Part shown: in pieces, positions 26,856 to 37,778 of the stretch | How positions within the stretch are numbered: the stretch's first letter is position 1 | Layout of the letters: every line of letters starts with the position of its first letter | Assembly (NCBI GenBank): GCA_025808555.1 | Contig: CP075526.1 | Location: forward strand, 558,387-622,386 | DNA length: 64,000 nucleotides | Source: Anaerolineales bacterium | GTDB taxonomy: Bacteria > Chloroflexota > Anaerolineae > Anaerolineales > UBA11579 | Direction of reading: 5' to 3' | Program-made: the position numbers and the translations under genes | Notes under the pieces: model-generated | The model's input: the letters and a program-made list of their open reading frames with translations, nothing else | What the model was told of the DNA's origin: nothing | Databases searched by the model: none

Positions 26856-26910
26856 GCGCGCTTGCGTTTAGCTTCCACCGCCTACGAGGCGAGCAGGCTT
26901 TTGACTATCG

Positions 26911-27261
26911 GTGAAGCGAGGATTCCGCCTCAGCAGACCAGCCGATTTCAAACGGGTGCGGCGACTGGGAAAGTCTTACACGCACCCGTTTGTTGTGCTT
27001 GTAGTGTTAACAAATGATGCAACCGACCCACCAGTTGGCAGCAGCCTACGGGTGGGCGTGGCTGCCGGCCGCAGTGTAGGCGGCGCCGTGCAGCGCAACC
27101 GCGCCAAGCGCGTGCTGCGGGCAGCCATGCAGCCGCTGCTGCAACGCATCAAGCCCGGGCACGACCTTGTGCTGATCGCCCGGGAAGCAATTCTTGCCAG
27201 CAGCAGCCAGCAGGCACAGGGGGTGCTGGAGCGGCTGCTGCAACGAGCCAAACTACTATGA
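26911..27261 (+). CDS. rnpA: ribonuclease P protein component
   Basis: GTG start. [14 protein letters not shown]...[14 protein letters not shown] (RNR motif). Located directly after rpmH. Confidence 0.85.
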
Positions 27262-27563
27262 ACGCACACCTCACGCACGACCACGCCGAGATCCATGAGC
27301 AGCCAGACCCGCGGCTGCGCGATCTGCCGCGCACATTGACCAACCTGCCGCGCTTTCTGCTGCTGATCCCCATCCGCATCTACCAGCTCACCTGGTCACG
27401 CACCCTGCCGCCGGATACCTGCCGCTTCTATCCCACCTGCTCTCATTACACCTACCAGGCCATCTATAAATATGGCGCGCTCAAGGGCGGCGGCATGGGC
27501 TTCTACCGCCTGCTGCGCTGTAACCCTTTCAATAAATCTGCCGGCTATGACCCGGTGCCATAA
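27258..27563 (+). CDS. yidD: membrane protein insertion efficiency factor YidD
   Basis: ATGA overlap with rnp[24 protein letters not shown]...RLLRCNPF. Confidence 0.85.
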
Positions 27564-27576
27564 ATTGGGAAGAGGA

Positions 27577-28632
27577 ATGAAGAAAAACACTCTGCTTAAA
27601 CTTGCCCTGTTGGGCCTGCTGAGCCTCGCCTTGAGCGCCTGTGGCACTGTGCCACCGCTGTCCTGGCCTGGCATCCATGTAGATGAGGCCAGCGGCCGCG
27701 CATACGTGGCTTATCAGAACCAAGTCACCGCCTTGAACAGCCAGACTGGCGCTTCGGTTTGGCAGTACCCCGCCGATCGCGACAATGGCTTCACGGCCTT
27801 TGCCGAACCTGCTCTGGGCGACGGCCAATTATTCTTTGGCAGCTACAACCACAACTTCTACGCGGTGACCCCTGGCAACGGGGCGCTGGAGTGGAGCTAC
27901 GAAGGCCCCGCAGGCCAGTTCATCGCCAGCCCGCTGGTGGATGGCGAGCGCATCTATGCACCCAACGCCGACCACACGCTGTACACCTTCGACCATGCCG
28001 GCGCGCTGCTGTGGACCTTTACGACAAGCCATCCGCAATGGGGCAAGCCCGCTCTGGGCGACGGCGTAGTGTATATCAGCTCGCTCAACCATTTCCTCTA
28101 TGCGCTGGATGCTGAAAGCGGCCAGGTGTTGTGGACGCTGGACACCGGCGGCACGCTGGCCGCCGGCCCGCTGCTGCACGAGGGCGTGCTGTACATCGGC
28201 AGCTTCAACAGTGAAGTGCTGGCGGTGGACGCGGCCGGCGGCGAAGTGCTATGGCGCGTGCCAACGGATGGCTGGGTTTGGGGCACCCCCGCCCTGTACG
28301 AAGGCCAGCTGCTGGTGGGTGACCTGAATGGCTTCCTGTATTCGCTGGATCCGGCCAGCGGCAGCCAAAACTGGACGCTGGAAACCGGCAGCTCCATCAC
28401 GGGCACTCCACTGGGCTTGAACGAGCATATCTACGTCATCAACGAGGCCGGGAGTGTGATTTCGGTTGATCTTGACGGCAGCATTGTCTGGAATCAGGAC
28501 TTTGGCACCGAGCTGTACGGCTCCGCCGTGGCAGCTGGTGACCTGATCCTGGTGGGCCAGCACAACAACACCACCACCGTGGTGGCCGTGAACGAGAGCG
28601 GCTCCCGCGTATGGACCTTTCCGCAACAGTAA
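27577..28632 (+). CDS. PQQ-like beta-propeller repeat lipoprotein (BamB/YfgL-like fold)
   Basis: Start MKKNTLLKLALLGLLSLALSAC with a lipobox. At least six repeats of the form LY.LD...G...W. Confidence 0.8.
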   Translation: MKKNTLLKLALLGLLSLALSACGTVPPLSWPGIHVDEASGRAYVAYQNQVTALNSQTGASVWQYPADRDNGFTAFAEPALGDGQLFFGSYNHNFYAVTPGNGALEWSYEGPAGQFIASPLVDGERIYAPNADHTLYTFDHAGALLWTFTTSHPQWGKPALGDGVVYISSLNHFLYALDAESGQVLWTLDTGGTLAAGPLLHEGVLYIGSFNSEVLAVDAAGGEVLWRVPTDGWVWGTPALYEGQLLVGDLNGFLYSLDPASGSQNWTLETGSSITGTPLGLNEHIYVINEAGSVISVDLDGSIVWNQDFGTELYGSAVAAGDLILVGQHNNTTTVVAVNESGSRVWTFPQQ

Positions 28633-28645
28633 TTAAAGGACAGCC

Positions 28646-29401
28646 ATGTTAGACATCATCATTGTCCCGTTTACCAATGTTCTTGTGTTTCTGTATGACA
28701 TTCTGGGCCAGAACTTTGGCCTGGCGATCATTGTCTTCACCCTGCTGATCAAGCTGCTCACCTACCCTCTGTCGGTATCGCAGCTCAAGAGCGCCCGCAT
28801 GACGCAGGAACTGCAGAATGACCCGCGCTGGAAGCAGATCCAGACCAAGTACAAGGACAACCGCGAGAAGCTGGCCCAGGAACAGATGAAGTTCTACCAG
28901 GAGAAGGGCATCAGCCCATTCAGCTCCTGCCTGCCGATGCTGATCCAGTTCCCCCTGCTGATCGCCATGTACTGGTCCATCCAGCGCTCGCTGGCGGCCA
29001 CGCCGCTGGCCCTGCTGGACTTTGCACGCGGCATCGCCCTGCCCAATGCGGCTGAATTGCTGCCGCTGAACAGCAGCTTCCTGTGGATGGACCTGTCGCA
29101 GCCGGAGCGCTTGCACCTGGCTTTTCTGCCGTTCGCCATCCCGGTCCTGACCATCGTCGTGGTGGTCACCACCTGGCTGCAAAGCAAGATGATGACCCCT
29201 GCCTCCACCAACCCCAACGACCAGAGCGCGCAGATGGCTCGTTCCATGAGCCTGACCATGCCATTGATGATGGGTTACATCTCGATGGTGTTCCCTTCCG
29301 GTCTCTCCATCTACTATGTGATCAGCAACCTGTTTGGCATTGCTCAGGCCTGGCTGATGCGCCGCCAGCCAGCCAGCGCGGCTGCGCCGGCCAGCAAGTA
29401 A
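28646..29401 (+). CDS. yidC: membrane protein insertase YidC (short, Oxa1-like form)
   Basis: GLAIIVFTLLIKLLTYPL...KMKFYQEKGISPFSSCLPMLIQFPLLIAMY. Confidence 0.9.
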   Translation: MLDIIIVPFTNVLVFLYDILGQNFGLAIIVFTLLIKLLTYPLSVSQLKSARMTQELQNDPRWKQIQTKYKDNREKLAQEQMKFYQEKGISPFSSCLPMLIQFPLLIAMYWSIQRSLAATPLALLDFARGIALPNAAELLPLNSSFLWMDLSQPERLHLAFLPFAIPVLTIVVVVTTWLQSKMMTPASTNPNDQSAQMARSMSLTMPLMMGYISMVFPSGLSIYYVISNLFGIAQAWLMRRQPASAAAPASK

Positions 29402-29425
29402 GTTAGAATTCCGGCAAGGTATCGC

Positions 29426-30160
29426 ATGGAACATCGCACAAGTCTGGAAGTCATTGCCCCCACCGTGCACGAAGCCATTGAAAAAGGTTTGGTGGAACTG
29501 GGGCTTGAGGACACACAGGTAGACGTTGAGGTTTTGGACGAAGGCGGCACAGGCTTTTTGGGCCTGGGCGGCCGCCAAGCCCGTGTGCGCCTGATCGTCA
29601 AAGAAGGGCTGGCAAAGCCCGCCGCTGCAGCCACTCCGAAACGCAGCCGCCCTGCCGCCGAACCCAGCGCTCCGCTGACCGAAGCGGAAACCGAGAACTT
29701 GCTGGCAATTACCCGGGCCACAGTGCTGACCCTGCTGGAGCACATGAGTGTGCGCGCCGAGGTCAGCACGAGCCTGGGCGAACCAGACGAGCCGGATATG
29801 GCCCCGCCGGTGCTGGTGGATGTAGAGGGTGGCGACCTTAGCTTTCTGATCGGCCGCCATGCTGAAACCCTGAGCGCACTGCAACTGATCACGCGCCTGA
29901 TTGTCGGCAAAGAAGTTGGCCGGGCAGCCCACATCATCATTGATGTGGCCGGCTACCGCCAACGCCGCGACGAGAATCTGCGCAAACTGGCCAACAAGAT
30001 GGCCAAGCAGGCCGTCTCAACCGGGCGCCGTCAGACGCTGGAGCCGATGTCGCCCTCCGAGCGGCGCATCATTCACCTGGAGCTGCGCGACAGCGCCGAG
30101 GTGACCACAGAGAGCACGGGCGAAGAGCCGCGCCGCAAAGTCGTCATCATTCCGAAGTAG
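29426..30160 (+). CDS. jag: Jag/KhpB RNA-binding protein (KH + R3H)
   Basis: N-terminal Jag_N-like segment and a C-terminal R3H (EPMSPSERRIIHLEL). Located downstream of yidC. Confidence 0.85.
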   Translation: MEHRTSLEVIAPTVHEAIEKGLVELGLEDTQVDVEVLDEGGTGFLGLGGRQARVRLIVKEGLAKPAAAATPKRSRPAAEPSAPLTEAETENLLAITRATVLTLLEHMSVRAEVSTSLGEPDEPDMAPPVLVDVEGGDLSFLIGRHAETLSALQLITRLIVGKEVGRAAHIIIDVAGYRQRRDENLRKLANKMAKQAVSTGRRQTLEPMSPSERRIIHLELRDSAEVTTESTGEEPRRKVVIIPK

Positions 30161-30334: not shown

Positions 30335-32632
30335 CTACTGACTCGGCCACAACAAACGTATCTGGGTTCCTTCACCGAGCTTTGAGTCAATGTAAAGATA
30401 GGCGCCAATCACGGCGGCGCGTTCATTCATGCCGGCCAGGCCATAGTGCCGGGCCGCCAGCAACTCTGTCAGGCTTGTGCCGTGTATGTCAAAGCCTGAT
30501 CCGTCGTCTTCGATCAGCAAGTCGATCGCGTTGGCGCTCAATTGGCCGCTGATGTTGATCGTCTCCGGCTTGCCGTGCTCTATGGCGTTGTCAATCGCCT
30601 GTTGCACGATGCGGTACGCATGTTCAGCCACATGACCATCGAACATGACCTGGCTTTCGGGCAGCATCAGCGAGACCTGCACCTGTCCGTTCAGCCGGCT
30701 GGTCAGCTCATCCGTAAGCTCAACCAATGCGCGATACAAGCCAAAATCGAGCATCCCTGGGCGTAAGCGATAAATGAGCCGCCTAACGCCATCGCTGACA
30801 GCCTGGTGCTGTTGGTGCAAAGCCTCGCGATCTCCCTGGCCAGCGAGCAGGGCCATGCGGTCAATGCCGGTTAGCACGTCATCATGCAGCTCACGCGCCA
30901 AGTAGGCGCGGCTCTCCTCTTGCTGGTCAATGTCACGTTGGTAGAGCGCACGCAGCATGTCGGCCTGGTGGATGTTGACCAAGGCGATCGCCATCTGGTC
31001 AGCCAAAGAATGGAGCAAATTGGTTTCGGAATACGAATAGTAGTCATCCGGATCCTTGCGGCCCAATAGCCACAAGCCAACCGTGTCGGCGCCAGCCCTA
31101 ACGGGAATGGCCAGTTGCACCCAGTCAGAACGGTGTTCCAATGCATCCGCGGTATGTGGGCCGATGGCCATCAGTTTTTGCTGAGTTTCTTCCCCAGGCA
31201 CTTGCTGGGCCGTGACGCCCTGTGCATAGATCAGTTGGCGCCCAGGTGTTCGAGCATCAAATTGCAGCAGGGCTGATTGACGGATCAGCAGCGTAGGCAA
31301 TACTTGCTTCTGCAACGTTTGGCCAAGATGCTGGCGGGTGAAACTGGTAGAGATCAGATTGGCAAAACGCTGCTGCAAACCCTCGGGCGGCATGGGGATG
31401 TTGAGAAAGCGGCGCTCGACAAAGCGCTGAAAACGCTCAAAGGCAAAGATGTTGAACAGGGTGACCAGCAAACCGGTAACCAGAATGGCCAGGGCGATCT
31501 CTTGTGGATTCTCAAGCCGCGGGGCAAACGACGACACCAGGATGAGAGTACCTATGAACAAGAGCAACAGGAATAGATAGACCGAGATGAGACGATTGGC
31601 TCGCAGCTCCATGCCGCCCAGCTGGCGGCGATAAACCACATACAAGTAGCCGCCTGGACAGGCCGCCAGCGAGAACACGCCACCCGCGCTTAGCAGCGGC
31701 AGGGGCACCTGGGCTGTGGCTAGTCCAAGAATGAGCGTGGGCAGCAGCGCCAATGCGAAGGAGCCTAACAGCAAACCGACCTCGCGGCGCTCGCCCCGGC
31801 TGGCGAAGAAGCGCACCAGAAGCATCAGGAAGCTGCCCACTACCGCGACGAACAGCGCGTAGGCAAAGGCATTCGGGTCTACACGGTTGAAGGCTTGCAA
31901 TGCCGCGAAACCCATGCCAATGGCATACAAGACGCCCCATACCGCTCTGGGCAGGCGCGGGAATGGCCTTGGAAAGTTCCAGTGCAGATGCAGATACACC
32001 GGCAAGCTGAGCCAGATACCCATGCGGAAGACTTGTGGGCTGTAGAACACAGCAGTGCGCGAGATCGAACCTGCTATCAGCCATACCGCGGTCACATAAG
32101 AAAAAAGCACCAGCAGCCGCCAGCGTACATCCTGCGGGCGTACATGGAAGTAGATGATAGTGCCGGCAACCCAAAAAATATAACTTAGCCACCAGGTGTT
32201 GATAAGCCTGCCCCAAAACTCTGGCAGGTTGAACCCTGGTACTACGATCTGCACTTCTCGTTCTGTGCCGGCTGTACTGACATGCATCTCCACCACATCG
32301 CCAGGGTGCACATCAATAAACCATGGCTTGTGAATACTGTCTCGATACTCAGCGTAGGTGACTCCATTGACCTCCTGAACCATATCGCCCACCGTCAAAG
32401 CGCTTGAAACCTCAGCGGTAAAGAGATCGCTGATCTCGCCGCTGGTGGAATATTGGAACCCCAAATACGGGATAGCAAAGAAGCGCGCATAGGTGTAGAG
32501 CAGCAAGATAAACAGCACCAGGGCCGGCAAGATGAATTGCTTCAGGGGGTGAGCCAATTGATTACGCATAGCTTCAGTCAATGACGCAGGAGGTGATGCC
32601 CATCGAAAACCAGCAATGAACGCCAGTAGCAA
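30335..32632 (-). CDS. polytopic sensor histidine kinase, HisKA_3 type (ComP-like architecture)
   Basis: 765 aa with about 8-10 N-terminal TM segments and a beta-rich extracytoplasmic loop. GAF-like region. H-box ARELHDDVLTG, N-box QAIDNAIEHG, G-boxes EDDGSGF and GLAGMNERA. Start is ambiguous: TTG at 32632 or ATG at 32569. Confidence 0.85.
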   Translation of the reverse strand: MLLAFIAGFRWASPPASLTEAMRNQLAHPLKQFILPALVLFILLLYTYARFFAIPYLGFQYSTSGEISDLFTAEVSSALTVGDMVQEVNGVTYAEYRDSIHKPWFIDVHPGDVVEMHVSTAGTEREVQIVVPGFNLPEFWGRLINTWWLSYIFWVAGTIIYFHVRPQDVRWRLLVLFSYVTAVWLIAGSISRTAVFYSPQVFRMGIWLSLPVYLHLHWNFPRPFPRLPRAVWGVLYAIGMGFAALQAFNRVDPNAFAYALFVAVVGSFLMLLVRFFASRGERREVGLLLGSFALALLPTLILGLATAQVPLPLLSAGGVFSLAACPGGYLYVVYRRQLGGMELRANRLISVYLFLLLLFIGTLILVSSFAPRLENPQEIALAILVTGLLVTLFNIFAFERFQRFVERRFLNIPMPPEGLQQRFANLISTSFTRQHLGQTLQKQVLPTLLIRQSALLQFDARTPGRQLIYAQGVTAQQVPGEETQQKLMAIGPHTADALEHRSDWVQLAIPVRAGADTVGLWLLGRKDPDDYYSYSETNLLHSLADQMAIALVNIHQADMLRALYQRDIDQQEESRAYLARELHDDVLTGIDRMALLAGQGDREALHQQHQAVSDGVRRLIYRLRPGMLDFGLYRALVELTDELTSRLNGQVQVSLMLPESQVMFDGHVAEHAYRIVQQAIDNAIEHGKPETINISGQLSANAIDLLIEDDGSGFDIHGTSLTELLAARHYGLAGMNERAAVIGAYLYIDSKLGEGTQIRLLWPSQ

Positions 32633-32667
32633 AACCCCATTTTGTTCACTTTGAAAGGAAAACTACG

Positions 32668-32817
32668 ATGTCTATGCAAGCATTTTACACAAACATTGCC
32701 GCCAATACGGTGGCTGAGCAGCTGCAAGGCCTGCTGCGCATCACCAAGGCCAGCCTGGAGCAAGTGCAGGCCGTGCGTAGCGAGCTCGCCTGGGACACCT
32801 GGGGCGAAGCCAAGTAA
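32668..32817 (+). CDS. 49-aa small peptide, candidate ComX-like pheromone precursor
   Basis: Below the ORF-track cutoff. AAAGGA lies 8 nt upstream of the ATG. MSMQAFYTNIAANTVAEQLQGLLRITKASLEQVQAVRSELAWDTWGEAK. Codons are GC3-rich after the first ten. A strong hairpin follows, then the prenyl-synthase-like gene. Confidence 0.5.
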   Translation: MSMQAFYTNIAANTVAEQLQGLLRITKASLEQVQAVRSELAWDTWGEAK

Positions 32818-32824
32818 GTAGGAC

Positions 32825-32856
32825 CAGGGGCCGGCCACATAAGTGGCCGGCCCCTG
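32825..32856 (+). other. 14-bp GC-rich hairpin between the peptide ORF and the enzyme gene (no U-tract)
   Basis: CAGGGGCCGGCCAC-ataa-GTGGCCGGCCCCTG starts 8 nt after the peptide stop. AGGAGG and the next ATG follow it. Confidence 0.6.
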
Positions 32857-32877
32857 ACACTATCAGGAGGAAAGACG

Positions 32878-33831
32878 ATGAGTATCTATCATTCTGCTAT
32901 TGAATTGCTTCTCGAACAACCTCAGGTAGCGGAATGGCCGCTGCTGCAGCGCGTGGTGCGCCAGGCCACCGGCAAGCCGCCGGTGGCCTGGGACTTCCCG
33001 ATCGCCGGCTGCGTGGCGTCGGGGGCCGCCGAGCAGCAAGCGATACCTGCCGTGGCCGCCATCACCTGCGTCCACATTGCCATCATCCTGATCGACGACA
33101 TTCTGGACGAGGATCCGCGCGGCGAGCACAACCAACTCGGCGCTGGCCGCGCCGCCAACCTGGCAGCCGGCCTGGGCAGCCTGGGTCAGTACATGCTGGA
33201 AACGTACCCGTGCCAGCACCCGCACCTGGCCACAGCGTCCCTCAACCAGATGATGGGCAACACCGCTTATGGGCAAGACCTGGATGTGCAGAACAACCAC
33301 AGCGAAGAGGGTTACTGGGCCGTAGCACGCGCCAAGAGCTCACCCTATTTTGCTGCAGCGCTAACCCTGGGCGGATTGTACGGCGGCGCGGACCCTGGAT
33401 TGGCCGAGCAGCTACGCCAGTTCGGCGCCCTGTTCGGCGAGGTGATGCAAATTCACGATGATCTGAATGACTGTCTGGCAGAGCCGGCCAATGTGGACTG
33501 GCTGCAGGGCCGCGCCCCGTTGCCGCTACTGTTCGCTGAGCTGGTTCCCCACCCTGCTCGCAAGCGCTTTGTGGAACTGCGCGGCCAGGTGGCCCAGCCA
33601 GATGCTTTGCGCGAGGCGCAAAGCATTCTGGTGAGCAGCGGCGCGATCAGCTATTGCGTGAATGAGCTTGTGACCCGCCACCAACGCTTGCAAGCGATGC
33701 TGGACAAGATGCCGCTGGTTGAGCCGCGACTGCTTCAGCAAATCCTGGACCATGCCATTGCGCCGGTAGAGCACTTGTTTGCCTCAGTGGGGACAAGCTT
33801 CAACCCGGGTACAGATCGTCCATCGGCGTGA
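32878..33831 (+). CDS. divergent polyprenyl-synthetase-fold protein (ComQ-like isoprenyl transferase candidate)
   Basis: 317 aa with two Asp-rich motifs, IDDILDED and IHDDLND, and GQDLD between them. I could not find the canonical GGKRxR, the RRG after motif 1, or the GK...GK.T after motif 2. Confidence 0.7.
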   Translation: MSIYHSAIELLLEQPQVAEWPLLQRVVRQATGKPPVAWDFPIAGCVASGAAEQQAIPAVAAITCVHIAIILIDDILDEDPRGEHNQLGAGRAANLAAGLGSLGQYMLETYPCQHPHLATASLNQMMGNTAYGQDLDVQNNHSEEGYWAVARAKSSPYFAAALTLGGLYGGADPGLAEQLRQFGALFGEVMQIHDDLNDCLAEPANVDWLQGRAPLPLLFAELVPHPARKRFVELRGQVAQPDALREAQSILVSSGAISYCVNELVTRHQRLQAMLDKMPLVEPRLLQQILDHAIAPVEHLFASVGTSFNPGTDRPSA

Positions 33832-34504
33832 TGAGCCCAAGCTCGCGCGCTTTCAGCACTGCTGCGGTCATGTTGTTGACGCGCAAGCGCTTGTAGGAGT
33901 TCGAGAGCAGGTTGCGCACCGTGGATGAGCGGATCTTGAGTTGGGTTGCGAGCTGGTCGGTGGACATATCCGGGTTGGCCGCGCACAGCGATAGCACTTC
34001 GCGCTGGCGATCCGTGAGCATCTCTATATCCGCTCTGCTATCTGTTTGAGCCAAAGCCGCCACGGATTGTTTGGACAAATAGGTGCCGCCGGCTGCCACG
34101 GACAGGACGATCTCACCCAGCCGCTCAGAAGCGGCCACATCGGACTTGATGATATATCCACTGGCGCCAGCTTCCATGATGGAGCGGATCAACGTGGGCA
34201 GCTTGTGCCCGGAGATCACCAGAATAGCCATGGCAGTGTGATCCCTACGCAAGCGAGGGATCACACTGAACAGAGGGTAAGGTGCAAGCGTGCCTTGACT
34301 GGCTGGCGCCACCACGTCCAATATCAGCACATCCACCTCGTGCTTTGCCAGCAGCTGATCCAATTCCTCACCATTACGTGCAGAGGCGACCAACTCAATG
34401 TTGGGGTAAGCCGACAAGCGATAGGTGTAACCGTCCACCACCACTGGGTGGTCTTCCAAAACAGCAACACGAATCTTCTTTTCTGAGTTCAAGTGAGTGT
34501 TCAT
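33800..34504 (-). CDS. NarL/LuxR-family response regulator
   Basis: REC domain (IRVAVLEDH...VLILDV) plus a GerE HTH (LTDRQREVLSLCAANPDMSTDQLATQLKIRSSTVRNLLSNSYKRL). GGAGGAGG lies upstream of the ATG. Confidence 0.9.
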   Translation of the reverse strand: MNTHLNSEKKIRVAVLEDHPVVVDGYTYRLSAYPNIELVASARNGEELDQLLAKHEVDVLILDVVAPASQGTLAPYPLFSVIPRLRRDHTAMAILVISGHKLPTLIRSIMEAGASGYIIKSDVAASERLGEIVLSVAAGGTYLSKQSVAALAQTDSRADIEMLTDRQREVLSLCAANPDMSTDQLATQLKIRSSTVRNLLSNSYKRLRVNNMTAAVLKARELGLITPMDDLYPG

Positions 34505-34828: not shown

Positions 34829-34900
34829 GCCCCTATAGCTCAGTGGATAGAGCACTGCCCTCCGGAGGCAGGGGCCTGCGTTCGAATCGCAGTAGGGGCA
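34829..34900 (+). tRNA. tRNA-Arg (anticodon CCG)
   Basis: 72-nt cloverleaf with acceptor GCCCCTA/TAGGGGC, D arm GCTC-AGTGGATA-GAGC, anticodon loop CT-CCG-GA and T arm CTGCG-TTCGAAT-CGCAG. Confidence 0.9.
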
Positions 34901-34936
34901 TACGCCCGCCTGGCGGGCGGGCTTACAGCAGTTCCC

Positions 34937-34962
34937 ACTCGGCTTCGCCGAGTAACGGAACG
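34937..34962. repeat. 26-nt tRNA-associated repeat, copy 2
   Basis: Identical to 10031-10056, 37 nt downstream of tRNA-Arg. The CGTCTGTGT motif recurs at 34979-34987. Confidence 0.7.
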
Positions 34963-35213
34963 TCAGGTTTCCTTAAGCGTCTGTGTCATCACTTACAAGA
35001 TGAAGGTTCCTGCGGACTATGACACCCAGCATGGCTGGGTACAGTTCAAGCGCGGGCGGCTGGAGGCCGATGTAAAAGGGCAAGCATTTGCGCTTGCGCA
35101 TCATTGCCCCTAACTGGCTGGGCATGTACGTTATCAAGCGCTCGCTGAACCGGCATGTGGAGATGTTCGGGCAGCGCGAGCAGCTGAGTATACGTTGGAG
35201 AAATTCAGACAAT

Positions 35214-35245
35214 AAAAAAGAGCCGGCATATGCCGGCTCTTTTTT
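35214..35245. terminator. bidirectional intrinsic terminator
   Basis: AAAAAAGAGCCGGCA-ta-TGCCGGCTCTTTTTT, 9 nt beyond the modA stop. Confidence 0.8.
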
Positions 35246-35253
35246 AGGCGAGG

Positions 35254-36054
35254 TTACGGCTTTGGCCCAAAGCCCCACTTCGCCAGAATCGCCTGGCCTT
35301 CGGCACCCAACACAAAGTCCACAAAATCTTGCGCCACGCTGCCCGCCGGCGCTCTCTCCACGACGGCGATTGGATAGCTGGCGACCACGTTGAGCTCATC
35401 CGGAATGGGGATCTGCAGCACGCTCCCGGCAATATCCGGCGTAACATCAGAGGTGTACACGATGCCCGCATCCGCCTCCCCCAGCGAAACCTTGGTAGCC
35501 ACCTGGCGCACATTCGGCTCCTCAGACACCAGGTTGGCGTAGATGGCCGCGCCAAAGGCCGCATCACCCATTAATGCGATGCTCTGGTCGCTGTATTCAC
35601 GCACGGGCACGTCCGGTGCAGCCAGCACCAGCGCAATGCCAGGGTTGGCAAGGTCGGTGTAGGTCTCAAGACCAGCCGGGTTATCCGCCGGCACGATGAT
35701 GGTCAGGCGATTGGAGAGAAAGGCGATCGGATCGCCCTCAATGCGGCCAGCGTCCGAAGCCACGGTCATCTGCGTGAAGTTGGCCGCGGCGAACACATCC
35801 GCCGGGGCGCCTTCAATCAATTGCATAGCCAGCGAGGACGAGCTGGCGTAGTTGAGCAGCACATCCACGCCAGGGTTGGCCGCTTCAAAGGCTTCGGCGA
35901 TCTCTTTGAACGCATCTGTCAATGAGGAAGCCGCCATCACCACCAACTCAGTGCTAACGCTAGTTTGTGTTTGCGTGGCTGCCGGCGCGGGGGCGCCGCA
36001 GGCGGCCAGAAGTATTGCGAAAAATACCAATATGGAAAGTGCCGGCCTCTTCAA
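35254..36054 (-). CDS. modA: molybdate/tungstate ABC-type substrate-binding lipoprotein
   Basis: Lipobox LLAAC. VMAASSLTDAFKEIAEAFEAANPGVDVLLNYASSS...ADVFAAAN is typical ModA. Confidence 0.8.
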   Translation of the reverse strand: MKRPALSILVFFAILLAACGAPAPAATQTQTSVSTELVVMAASSLTDAFKEIAEAFEAANPGVDVLLNYASSSSLAMQLIEGAPADVFAAANFTQMTVASDAGRIEGDPIAFLSNRLTIIVPADNPAGLETYTDLANPGIALVLAAPDVPVREYSDQSIALMGDAAFGAAIYANLVSEEPNVRQVATKVSLGEADAGIVYTSDVTPDIAGSVLQIPIPDELNVVASYPIAVVERAPAGSVAQDFVDFVLGAEGQAILAKWGFGPKP

Positions 36055-36071
36055 CGGGACTCCTTGGCGAT

Positions 36072-36605
36072 TTAGGTGCGTACTTCAGCCACGCGTTCTT
36101 CGCAGCGATCCAACCAGGCCAGCACAGCACCCAACTGACCGAGCACAAAATCCAGCACCAGATCCTCCATACCGTCTGAACTGGTGCTAGCAGCCAGCAG
36201 CTGGCTGCGCTGCCTTTCACACACTGCACGCTGTGCATCGATCAGAGGCTGAGTTGGCCAACCCAGGCGGCGCGCCACATACAGGCGGCTCATGAACTGC
36301 ACGCGCACCTGGCGCACACTGGCGGAGAGCTCGGACGCCTGCAGCCAGCCTTCCAGCCGGCGGCGGCCGGAGGCGGTGATGCTGTAATGACGGCGCGGCG
36401 GGGCATCGCCGCTTTGCAGGGTCTTGCCGCGGATCAGGCCTCCGCCCTCGAGGCGCTTGAGCACGGCGTAGAGTTGGCTGGTGCTCAGGGTCCACACCCG
36501 CCCCAGGTCAGCCTTGGACTGGAACAGAGCCAGCAGTTGATAGCCGTGCTGCGGCTCAGCCGCCAGAATGCCCAGGATCGTTTCGTCCGGAACGGGAATG
36601 GCCAT
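36072..36605 (-). CDS. PadR-family transcriptional regulator
   Basis: Start at MAIPVPDE (ATG 36605). ILGILAAEPQHGYQLLALF...LYAVLKRLEGGGLI. Confidence 0.8.
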   Translation of the reverse strand: MAIPVPDETILGILAAEPQHGYQLLALFQSKADLGRVWTLSTSQLYAVLKRLEGGGLIRGKTLQSGDAPPRRHYSITASGRRRLEGWLQASELSASVRQVRVQFMSRLYVARRLGWPTQPLIDAQRAVCERQRSQLLAASTSSDGMEDLVLDFVLGQLGAVLAWLDRCEERVAEVRT

Positions 36606-36625
36606 ACGCGCAGTATAGCACAACT

Positions 36626-36644
36626 CTATTCCATCATGGAATAG
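36626..36644. promoter_or_regulatory. perfect 9-bp inverted repeat, candidate PadR operator
   Basis: CTATTCCAT-c-ATGGAATAG, 21 nt upstream of the PadR-like start, in the divergent gap to gap. Confidence 0.45.
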
Positions 36645-36770
36645 CAAGAGCAAAAGAACAGTACAAACGACATGCTCTTCACCAGTCACTGCTCACTGAG
36701 CGCTAGTTCCATTGCGCACTATAATAGGTGACGAAACTAGCCATAATTTGCATTCACTTGGAGGAACAGC

Positions 36771-37778
36771 ATGGCACGTGTAGCTATTAATGGTCTGGGG
36801 CGTATTGGGCGCGCGGCGTTGCGCCTGGCCCTGGAGGATGACAATCTGGAAGTGGTGGCGGTCAACGATATTGCCTCGCCTGAGAACATTGCTTACCTGA
36901 TCAAGTACGACACGGTGTATGGCCGCTTTGGCGAAGATGTGCGCGCCGAGGGCACAACCCTGCACGTAGACAAGCACAGCTTCCAATTCCTCAGCGAGAA
37001 AGACCCGGCCGCCCTGCCCTGGAAGGATCTGGGCGTGGACATTGTGATCGAGAGCACCGGCCGTTTCACTGAGAAGGCCGACGCCGCCAAGCACATTGAG
37101 GCCGGCGCCAAGTACGTCATCATCTCCGCCCCCACGAAGAGCGCCGATGTGCCCACGGTGGTGTTTGGCGTCAACACCTCTGACGAGGACGCCAACATCA
37201 TCTCCTGCGCAAGCTGCACCACCAACTCGCTGACCCCGGTGGTTGAAGTCATCGGCCGCCGCCTGGGCATCCAGAAAGCGATCATGACCACGGTGCACGG
37301 CTATACCGCCGGCCAGGGCCTGGTGGACGGCCCCGGCGGCAAAGGCGGCGATTTCCGCCGCGGCCGGGCCGCCGCCGCCAACATCGTGCCCGCCACCACC
37401 GGCGCGGCCAAGGCCACCACGCTGGCTCTGCCCCAGTACAAGGGCAAGTTTGACGGCGTGGCGCTGCGCGTGCCGGTGCCAGTCGGCTCCGTTTCCGACA
37501 TCGTGATGCTGACCGAGAAGAACACCAGCGCTGAGGAGATCAACCAGATCCTCACCGAAGAATCCGAGGGCCGCTACAAGGGCATCATCCGCGTGACCAA
37601 CGACGAGATCGTGTCTTCTGACATCGTTGGCGACCCGCACGCCTGCATCATTGACATGGAAATGACCAAAGTGGTCGACGGCAACCTGGTGAAGATCTTC
37701 GCCTGGTACGACAACGAGTGGGGCTACACGAATCAGATGATCCGCAAAGCCCGCGAGATCGCTGGCACGCTGAAGTAA
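36771..37778 (+). CDS. gap: type I glyceraldehyde-3-phosphate dehydrogenase
   Basis: INGLGRIGR NAD-binding motif and the active-site region SCASCTTNSL. Confidence 0.95.
   Translation: MARVAINGLGRIGRAALRLALEDDNLEVVAVNDIASPENIAYLIKYDTVYGRFGEDVRAEGTTLHVDKHSFQFLSEKDPAALPWKDLGVDIVIESTGRFTEKADAAKHIEAGAKYVIISAPTKSADVPTVVFGVNTSDEDANIISCASCTTNSLTPVVEVIGRRLGIQKAIMTTVHGYTAGQGLVDGPGGKGGDFRRGRAAAANIVPATTGAAKATTLALPQYKGKFDGVALRVPVPVGSVSDIVMLTEKNTSAEEINQILTEESEGRYKGIIRVTNDEIVSSDIVGDPHACIIDMEMTKVVDGNLVKIFAWYDNEWGYTNQMIRKAREIAGTLK

Follow-up and report, generated by a model that had tools for sequence, protein, structure and literature searches.

A 64,000-nt stretch of DNA from an Anaerolineales bacterium (contig CP075526.1 of assembly GCA_025808555.1; hereafter the window, whose positions are used throughout) carries a small open reading frame (ORF) of 49 codons on the plus strand (32668-32817, with the ATG at 32668 and the TAA at 32815-32817), and this ORF is a genuine protein-coding gene under purifying selection. 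Its product, MSMQAFYTNIAANTVAEQLQGLLRITKASLEQVQAVRSELAWDTWGEAK, is probably the precursor of a ComX-like modified peptide signal and the substrate of the enzyme encoded downstream of it. The peptide gene, a stem-loop, the gene of an enzyme resembling trans-isoprenyl diphosphate synthases (IPPS), and the genes of a histidine kinase and a response regulator are linked across the family. The cassette as a whole looks like a tryptophan-peptide system of the ComQXPA or PalPXQ kind with a new precursor family that is widespread in Anaerolineae.

The small ORF had been proposed in a first-pass annotation of the same DNA, and its coordinates, its ribosome-binding site (RBS) AAAGGA (32654-32659, 8 nt before the ATG), the numbering of its two tryptophans and its C-terminal decapeptide LAWDTWGEAK all agree with the sequence; W42 is the eighth and W45 the fifth residue from the end. 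The third-position GC richness (GC3) claimed for its codons was also borne out, with a value of 0.74 that equals that of the enzyme gene (0.74; kinase gene 0.68, regulator gene 0.69), and the spacing to the prenyl-synthase-like gene, which matches PF00348, is exactly the 60 nt given, counted from the stop codon to the enzyme ATG at 32878. Since 119 ORFs of 30 aa or more occur over the six frames of the surrounding 10 kb (61.5% GC), a length of 49 codons is within chance, and the case for a gene rests on comparative evidence. Against the five closest genomes, the ratio of non-synonymous to synonymous substitution rates (dN/dS, Nei-Gojobori) is 0.06-0.11; 11 synonymous and 3 non-synonymous differences separate the ORF from that of locus L001, and the variable alignment columns are distributed 6/3/17 over the three codon positions. 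The other two frames of the same alignment, taken as off-frame controls, give pN/pS values of 0.85 and 1.55. In an alignment of 16 close loci the start codon and the RBS (an AAAGGA/AAGGAG block) are conserved, and the conserved RBS and the low dN/dS both argue for translation of the 49-aa product. Two outcomes that the first-pass annotation had named as refuting its proposal, equal substitution at the two kinds of site and a lack of homologous small ORFs beside homologous enzymes, did not occur, as seen from these ratios and from at least 76 of 80 species-level genomes (see below), and it is the low dN/dS relative to the off-frame controls together with these homologues that identifies the ORF as a gene.

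One could object that the ORF is untranslated and that a conserved RNA or DNA feature, for instance a 5' leader of the enzyme gene, happens to contain the frame. Conserved nucleic acid elements do flank the ORF, namely a Shine-Dalgarno (SD)-like block and the stem-loop, both described further below. The strong synonymous bias, with off-frame controls near or above 1, contradicts such a reading, as do the conserved start codon and RBS and the persistence of the amino acid pattern at 15-30% identity where the DNA has wholly diverged; in addition, no Rfam family matches the region. We therefore regard a purely non-coding origin of this conservation as extremely unlikely.

In order to follow the family, one genome per GTDB species was scanned, and the best 80 of 219 confirmed loci were kept. 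All 80 belong to Chloroflexota, mostly to Anaerolineales, and relatives of the enzyme are abundant in Anaerolineales metagenome-assembled genomes (MAGs) and metagenomes. A same-strand ORF of 43-69 aa lies directly upstream of the enzyme gene in 72 of the 80 loci under a strict pattern, and four more (L018, L050, L054 and L080) have a small ORF whose N terminus or spacing departs slightly from that pattern, which brings the homologous small ORFs to at least 76 of 80. As for the remaining loci, the small ORF of L045 is frameshifted, the contigs of L061 and L070 do not contain the upstream sequence, and in L067 and L076 (2 of 80) no small ORF was found upstream of the enzyme gene. Across the loci that keep the small ORF, enzyme identity drops to about 40%. 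A profile built from 43 family peptides matched 54 database peptides among 5.8 billion proteins; whichever of them bear a name in their source are called hypothetical proteins, and Pfam domains are absent from all 54. The description of the ORF as unannotated thus holds for the ORF track with its 60-aa cutoff but not elsewhere, as a 47-aa gene has been called at the equivalent place in the NCBI MAG CP075527.1 and the 54 relatives are in the databases. The window peptide itself has no exact entry in public gene calls, though its relatives are there.

Conservation within the peptide family was counted on 75 peptides anchored at their first tryptophan. This residue, W42 in the window, is present in all 75, and a second tryptophan follows at +3 (W45) in 72; two peptides end in ...GWD or ...GWA and have the first tryptophan only, and one has W-x-W. 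A small residue (A, G, S or T) immediately precedes W42 in 61 of the 75 peptides, leucine is found at -2 and serine at -4 in 45 each, and cysteine is absent from 69. F6, L22 and an L-x-x-L-T core are conserved as well, and the invariants F6, L22 and W42 recur in the independent set of 54 database peptides. From these alignments, the hallmark of the family is [small]-W-x-x-W (W42-D-T-W45 in the window, codons 32791-32802 on the plus strand), with W42, not W45, as the invariant residue and the proposed prenyl acceptor. What follows the second tryptophan is a tail of 0-16 residues without conservation; only 6 of 72 peptides end in the second tryptophan, and glycine comes after it in only 14 of 66. 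A resemblance of WGEAK to the WGD of ComX, which the first-pass annotation called striking, is coincidental, because the GEAK residues vary in sequence and length across the family. Likewise, of the expected pattern of a conserved W-x-x-W-G tail behind a variable leader, the W-x-x-W has held, the glycine is not conserved, and the leader is no more variable than the tryptophan region.

Modeled by AlphaFold2 with the family alignment, the window peptide is predicted to consist of three short helices (residues 3-11, 17-26 and 30-39) and a less confident tryptophan tail (mean predicted local distance difference test score, pLDDT, 74; 61 in the last block). No Pfam family matched the peptide at E <= 0.01, ComX (PF05952) included, and only noise appeared at E <= 10; the NCBIfam models, among them the NHLP-type leaders, gave no meaningful match to 43 family members at E <= 1. 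Since these relaxed scans returned only noise, the peptide is not a member of the ComX or NHLP families.

Two genomes of the collection contain two cassettes each, with different peptides: the MAG MFD01213.bin.1.46 (L016 and L018) and the MAG SRP077602_co5_33 (L025 and L057), the latter with one cassette from each of the two gene-order subgroups described below. The two peptides of a single genome can end, for example, in ...SDLIWETW and ...APAWESWTGLN. Such pairs suggest parallel, possibly orthogonal channels.

The enzyme gene (32878-33831, plus strand) has an AGGAGG RBS (32865-32870, 7 nt before its ATG) and encodes a 317-aa protein resembling trans-IPPS, the ComQ- or PalQ-like component of the cassette and its proposed tryptophan prenyltransferase. 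A single PF00348 match of 68.7 bits spans only positions 38-197 of the 251 of the profile. Of the motifs rich in aspartate, the first (FARM) reads D73-D-I-L-D-E-D79-P-R-G (33094-33123) and the second (SARM) Q191-I-H-D-D-L-N-D198 (33448-33471), both on the plus strand and both in invariant columns, with Q191, D194 and D198 invariant; DD[MIL]LD[ED]DPRG and Q-x-x-DD-x-x-D are found in all readable enzymes of the 80 loci. In canonical trans-IPPS, the GGKRxR motif of region I binds the diphosphate of isopentenyl diphosphate (IPP). This region is replaced by GKPPVAW38DFP41 in the window enzyme and by ...KPxAW38xFP41... in the family, a segment that has (nearly) invariant W38 and P41 and lacks conserved basic residues. 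The AlphaFold2 model (pLDDT 94.3) shows an all-alpha IPPS fold, and Foldseek aligns it with template modeling (TM) scores of 0.75-0.79 to polyprenyl synthases, including large subunits of the heterodimeric hexaprenyl and heptaprenyl diphosphate synthases (HexPPS and HepPPS). The enzyme thus has the IPPS fold and both aspartate-rich motifs, without the IPP-binding motif. With its IPP site lost, it is proposed to alkylate a peptide tryptophan in place of IPP. The fold search was uninformative for separating a peptide prenyltransferase from a synthase, as the top 50 structures listed were almost all chain-elongating synthases (TM-scores 0.67-0.79). The family is compact and separate in sequence space, with 247 representative clusters at E <= 1e-30 and 12,694 at E <= 1e-3.

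Two relatives of the enzyme carry additional parts. In the database protein P0208 (396 aa), a family peptide (MKNFYDKI...FEPWFTWADAQ...) is joined in frame to the enzyme through a linker of about 30 aa, and in P0281 (655 aa) the enzyme is joined to a kinase sensor domain via a stretch that looks frameshifted. Both could be natural fusions or assembly artefacts.

The same features bear on a different assignment, in which the enzyme is an ordinary chain-elongating synthase and the peptide its non-catalytic partner or regulator, as in the heteromeric hexaprenyl and heptaprenyl synthases. The canonical state of both aspartate-rich motifs is in line with this, as are the best sequence and fold matches to polyprenyl synthases, HexPPS and HepPPS large subunits among them, and the vertical inheritance of the locus at a fixed chromosomal site. 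The replacement of the GGKRxR region by a (nearly) invariant W/P segment and the partial Pfam match point the other way. The known small subunits of heteromeric prenyl synthases measure about 140-250 aa, unlike the family peptides with their 43-69 aa, C-terminal W-x-x-W and tail of variable length. The enzyme also evolves faster than its housekeeping neighbors (83% versus 96-98% identity), and the conserved kinase, regulator and gene-uncoupling stem-loop would be left unexplained. We give this assignment a small chance of being correct, and return to the peptide as a substrate of the enzyme.

The two remaining components are encoded on the minus strand, on either side of this pair. The sensor histidine kinase (30335-32569), the ComP-like component, is of the NarL type and lies divergent from the peptide gene; the response regulator (33800-34504, 234 aa), the ComA-like component, combines a receiver (REC) domain with a GerE/LuxR helix-turn-helix and is convergent with the enzyme gene, the 3' ends overlapping by 32 nt (33800-33831). 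No terminator lies between enzyme and regulator genes, and in L081 the corresponding overlap is 4 nt. The likely start of the kinase is the ATG at 32569 (MRNQLAHPLKQF..., 744 aa), which was chosen because alignments to relatives begin there and the ATG is conserved; the longest ORF runs on to a TTG at 32632, into the shared control region, where it would cover the SD-like block. At its C terminus the kinase matches Pfam HATPase_c (E = 9.8e-9), and it has an ELHDD H-box, partial NCBIfam matches to kinases of the NarQ, UhpB and LiaS types (residues 543-763), and about ten hydrophobic segments, seen as hydropathy peaks, with a loop of about 100 aa after the first transmembrane segment; HisKA_3 (PF07730) was not reported for it at E <= 0.01. 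The regulator matches Response_reg (1.3e-11) and GerE (7.3e-9) in Pfam, with partial NCBIfam matches of the NarL/UhpA type.

The arrangement of kinase (minus), peptide and enzyme (plus) and regulator (minus) was found by tblastn in about 60 of the 80 loci. The kinase is syntenic and divergent from the peptide gene in about 60 of 80 (32-81% identity) and the regulator is syntenic in about 65 of 80 (40-90% identity). In a distant subgroup the order is peptide, enzyme, kinase and, in part, regulator, all on one strand, and in both layouts the peptide gene lies immediately upstream of the enzyme gene. With a flanking kinase and regulator that are syntenic across the family, the ComQ/X/P/A-like set is complete. 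The original suggestion of a ComX-like precursor that serves the adjacent enzyme gains support from this linkage and from the kinase and regulator context, with the prenylation as its conjectural part.

Within the first extracytoplasmic loop of the kinase (32315-32410, minus strand; residues ~75-105 of the long ORF) lies a stretch GDMVQEVNGVTY...PGDVVEMHV, and the kinase portion of P0281 contains the comparable GDQLLSIGDLSHEEY. This stretch is reminiscent of a PDZ-like ligand-binding segment, though no Pfam model matched it.

Many small proteins are known to modulate sensor kinases. The peptide gene diverges from the kinase gene and shares its control region, so one might suppose that a small protein here modulates the two-component system and owes its place beside the enzyme gene to operon packaging, with no functional tie to the enzyme. 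In the rearranged subgroup, however, the peptide gene keeps its place upstream of the enzyme gene instead of accompanying the kinase gene, and P0208 fuses the peptide to the enzyme. Moreover, the invariant residue of the peptide is a tryptophan, and no other acceptor is known for enzymes of this class (PMC13290415). A peptide that acts on the kinase independently of the enzyme is, in our judgment, very unlikely.

The cassette occupies a fixed chromosomal site between two blocks (approximately 26900-30160 and 34829-37778). Upstream lies a yidD/PQQ-repeat/yidC/jag group, with rpmH and rnpA in front of it in the relative L081; downstream follow a tRNA gene (34829-34900), a gene for a modA-like substrate-binding protein, padR and gap. 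These neighbors are 90-98% identical to those of L001-L003, which together with the fixed site points to vertical inheritance and not to a mobile island. Compared with L001, the peptide is 96% identical, the enzyme 83%, the kinase 74% (78% in the sensor part, 70% in the kinase domain), the regulator 75%, YidC 96% and GAPDH 98%.

Between the stop codon of the peptide gene and the RBS of the enzyme gene, a GC-rich stem-loop with a perfect 14-bp stem and a 4-nt loop is encoded on the plus strand (32825-32856; inverted repeat I1; ΔG -37.7 kcal/mol, z = -6.6). An equivalent element is present in every locus examined (72), starting a median of 10 nt after the peptide stop and ending 15 nt before the enzyme start, and its ΔG is <= -20 kcal/mol in 67 of the 72, versus 6.7% of random segments. 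A canonical intrinsic terminator was considered and rejected: no T-tract follows the stem-loop in the window, and a T-tract is present at only 6 of the 72 loci, so the element is not a standard terminator. The stem sequence varies with compensatory changes among loci, while a core GG[CT]C[GA]G...C[CT]G[GA]CC is common to 33 of 72 (background 0.6%); seven loci, which belong to the distant co-directional subgroup, have another palindrome, (A)CGTGTGG...CCACACG(T). The partial conservation of the stem sequences hints at recognition by a protein or an RNase and not at a generic hairpin. We propose that the stem-loop is an mRNA-stabilizing or attenuating element that sets a high ratio of peptide to enzyme. 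A stem-loop between the genes of a precursor and its modifying enzyme is the usual route to surplus precursor message in operons for bacteriocins and for ribosomally made peptides with post-translational modifications (RiPPs). Programmed read-through from peptide to enzyme was rejected as well: the two genes are in the same frame in the window, but a shared frame occurs in only 17 of 72 loci, the rate expected by chance, and TAA is the usual stop.

The second conserved element is the SD-like sequence AAGGAGGTGA (32587-32596, plus strand), which lies upstream of the peptide ATG by about 79 nt and, in antisense, upstream of the kinase ATG by 18 nt. The block is identical in all 16 close loci while its flanks vary. 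Of 71 loci, about 50 have GGAGGTG at -76 to about -119 from the peptide ATG, and 60 have GGAGG upstream of the peptide start at a distance of over 25 nt; GGAGGTGA has a background frequency of 0.065 per kb. A small ORF beginning after the AAGGAGGTGA block was rejected, as neither a start codon nor a frame is conserved. The block could be a 5' mRNA stabilizer of the STAB-SD type, a regulator-binding site, or part of a sense/antisense overlap between the divergent transcripts. No σ70-consensus promoter was found in the region.

Judging from the sequence, we envisage the following course of events. The peptide gene would be transcribed from the divergent intergenic region that it shares with the kinase gene, and the stem-loop after its stop codon would leave more of its mRNA than of the enzyme message downstream. 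With its three helices, the N-terminal part of the peptide may then serve as the recognition element for the adjacent enzyme, which would use its DDxLDxD motif to bind an allylic prenyl diphosphate (C10-C20) and, instead of IPP, alkylate the indole of a tryptophan in the C-terminal W-x-x-W motif. W42 is most probably the modified site, while W45 or both residues are possible; W42 is favored because it is the only invariant tryptophan, is the sole tryptophan of two family members, and has a small residue before it, which is of help to PalQ. Once lipidated and probably trimmed, the peptide would be released and sensed by the kinase with its approximately ten transmembrane segments, which in turn may phosphorylate the LuxR-type regulator and thereby alter transcription, plausibly of the cassette itself. 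We infer the prenylation and its site, the processing and export, the sensing by the kinase and a role in quorum sensing from comparative data.

Several observations weigh against a ComX-like signal. Among close genomes, no other component of the cassette is as conserved as the peptide, the opposite of the pherotype diversification of Bacillus, and conserved protease or exporter genes are missing from the cassette. Homology of the peptide to ComX, to NHLP-type or to other catalogued leaders was not detected, and the enzyme is closer to chain-elongating synthases (~1e-15) than to ComQ (E = 5e-7, 20% identity). Furthermore, the second motif of the enzyme is a canonical DDxxD, whereas an Asn is needed at the equivalent position in ComQ and StheQ, where N-to-D mutants lose 90-98% of their activity (bioRxiv 10.64898/2026.08.29.745113).

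Alternatively, the neighboring enzyme may prenylate the peptide to yield something other than a diffusible quorum signal. The product might act as a membrane-anchored modulator of the kinase in cis, comparable to CaaX proteins, or as a bioactive RiPP regulated by the two-component system. The conservation of the entire peptide and not of its tail alone, the predicted three-helix fold, a peptide more conserved than enzyme and kinase with no pherotype-like variation, and the lack of linked processing or export genes are all compatible with such a product, and no physiological role is established for PalX or StheX either. On the other hand, the linkage of four genes, including one for a polytopic kinase, in two arrangements has the look of an autoinducer circuit, and the immunity and transporter genes of antimicrobial RiPP clusters are not present. 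The lack of a dedicated exporter or protease gene is shared by the ComX locus itself (PMC4008528). On balance we hold a prenylated product other than a diffusible signal to be unlikely and favor a ComX-like signal.

Taking these elements together, we speculate that Anaerolineae possess a vertically inherited peptide quorum-sensing circuit that was assembled independently of the Bacillus ComQXPA system from a prenyl synthase with a canonical SARM. Its pheromone would carry the W-x-x-W signature and be prenylated on one or both tryptophans, its precursor would be translated from a stable mini-mRNA bounded by the 5' SD-like stabilizer and the 3' stem-loop, and some genomes would run two orthogonal channels. 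The scenario in its entirety is possible, and we put it forward tentatively. Anaerolineae are filamentous, largely uncultured Chloroflexota of sludge, sediments and digesters that shape the granules and flocs of wastewater treatment, and cell-cell signaling was not found described for them in the literature searched; nor did this search return a paper on an Anaerolineae system of this family. Signaling by tryptophan-prenylated ComX has so far been treated as a specialty of Firmicutes, and what we describe would appear to be the first complete cassette of peptide, enzyme, kinase and regulator outside this phylum, with a new precursor family bearing the W-x-x-W signature in dozens of species-level Anaerolineae genomes. 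A natural enzyme variant with a canonical second aspartate motif and an internal double-tryptophan acceptor also bears on the repurposing of isoprenoid synthases for peptide lipidation.

The comparison with known systems starts with the canonical synthases, which provide the best sequence matches in the PDB: GGPP, hexaprenyl, octaprenyl and nonaprenyl synthases match the enzyme at E = 2e-15 to 1e-11, and the free-tryptophan farnesyltransferase Ord1 (PDB 9V4G/9V4J) at E = 1.2e-11. Both DDxxD motifs, GQxxD and the KS/KT motif of canonical IPPS are retained in the window enzyme; the differences are an identity of only about 20%, the absence of GGKRxR, the shortening of the RRG after the FARM to PRG and the pairing with a tryptophan peptide gene. 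The characterized peptide prenyltransferases resembling trans-isoprenyl diphosphate synthases all act on tryptophan, namely ComQ, PalQ and ChrPC (PMC13290415) and StheQ (bioRxiv 10.64898/2026.08.29.745113).

For ComQXPA, published criteria describe ComQ as a single-domain PF00348 protein of ~286-309 aa, ComX as a precursor of 52-73 aa with a tryptophan within its last 5-10 residues, ComP as a polytopic kinase with HisKA_3 (PF07730) and HATPase_c (PF02518), and ComA as a protein with REC (PF00072) and GerE (PF00196) domains (Dogsa et al., 2014; PMC4008528). All four parts have their counterpart in the Anaerolineae cassette, in the form of a tryptophan-containing precursor of about 50 aa, a PF00348 enzyme, a polytopic kinase and a REC and GerE regulator. 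The 317-aa enzyme scores 68.7 bits with its single PF00348 domain where genuine ComQ proteins score 46-56 bits, both being weak and partial matches; the window peptide is slightly short at 49 aa, in a family of 43-69 aa; the regulator has the two domains of ComA; and the kinase has a HATPase_c domain, about ten hydrophobic segments and an ELHDD H-box, while PF07730 was not reported at E <= 0.01. The ComQ reference consisted of 11 genuine ComQ sequences; the query used to collect them matched a database entry at 100%, and several matches are named ComQ by their source. Aligned with these by hhalign, the enzyme reaches 92.5% probability (E = 4.9e-7, 20% identity, 207 columns), in a register that pairs DDILDEDP with DDLEDEDN and GQDLDVQN with GQHDDIxN and retains the Gln and the second Asp of the second motif. 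The GGKRxR motif is absent from ComQ and the window enzyme alike. Neither does the comX locus include a dedicated exporter or protease gene (PMC4008528).

Differences from ComQXPA are equally clear. The phylum is Chloroflexota and not Firmicutes, and the gene order is P(-), X(+) Q(+), A(-) or X-Q-P-A instead of Q-X-P-A on one strand. The peptide has two conserved tryptophans (W-x-x-W) and no homology to Pfam ComX, the hypervariability of ComX, ComQ and the ComP sensor that defines pherotypes is not seen, and the second DDxxD of the enzyme family is canonical (QIHDDLND) where ComQ and StheQ have a pseudo-SARM. A census in 2014 found no comQXPA loci outside Firmicutes (PMC4008528), and a 2022 survey attributed to Chloroflexi only the kinase-regulator pair of the system.

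PalQ and StheQ were compared at the level of motifs, from the descriptions in the respective papers. The nearest published system, described in a preprint of August 2026, is StheQ/StheX of Sphaerobacter thermophilus (Thermomicrobia), in which StheQ is a demonstrated tryptophan farnesyltransferase, so that such chemistry exists in Chloroflexota (bioRxiv 10.64898/2026.08.29.745113). The two systems share the phylum, an enzyme of IPPS fold next to a small ORF with two tryptophans near its C terminus, and an ordered helical N-terminal part with a flexible tryptophan tail, as predicted by the model of the window peptide. StheX, with 69 aa and a C terminus ...WW-x, is encoded downstream of StheQ, whereas the Anaerolineae peptide lies upstream and has W-x-x-W; StheQ has a pseudo-SARM N215-D-x-x-D whose N215D variant loses 98% of its activity, whereas all readable Anaerolineae enzymes have the Asp; and the sections of the preprint that were consulted mention no linkage to a kinase or regulator.

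The PalPXQ system of Paenibacillus alvei (PMC10853753) likewise clusters a kinase, a precursor and an enzyme resembling trans-isoprenyl diphosphate synthases, with the precursor before the enzyme. PalX, in contrast to the Anaerolineae peptide, which matches no NHLP model, is of the NHLP type and about 100 aa long. PalQ strictly needs a terminal tryptophan, while four residues follow W45 in the window peptide and the second tryptophan is terminal in just 6 of 72 family members; the sequence cluster of PalQ comprises Paenibacillaceae and Clostridium only; and a dedicated response regulator is part of the Anaerolineae cassette, unlike PalPXQ. PalQ favors a small residue or Gly before the acceptor tryptophan, as is found before W42 in most Anaerolineae peptides (61 of 75), and the second aspartate motif with its upstream Gln is kept in both enzymes (Q197, D200 and D204 of PalQ; Q191, D194 and D198 in the window; PMC10853753). 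Altogether, the gene order and the second aspartate motif of the Anaerolineae cassette are unlike those of ComQ and StheQ and resemble those of PalQ.

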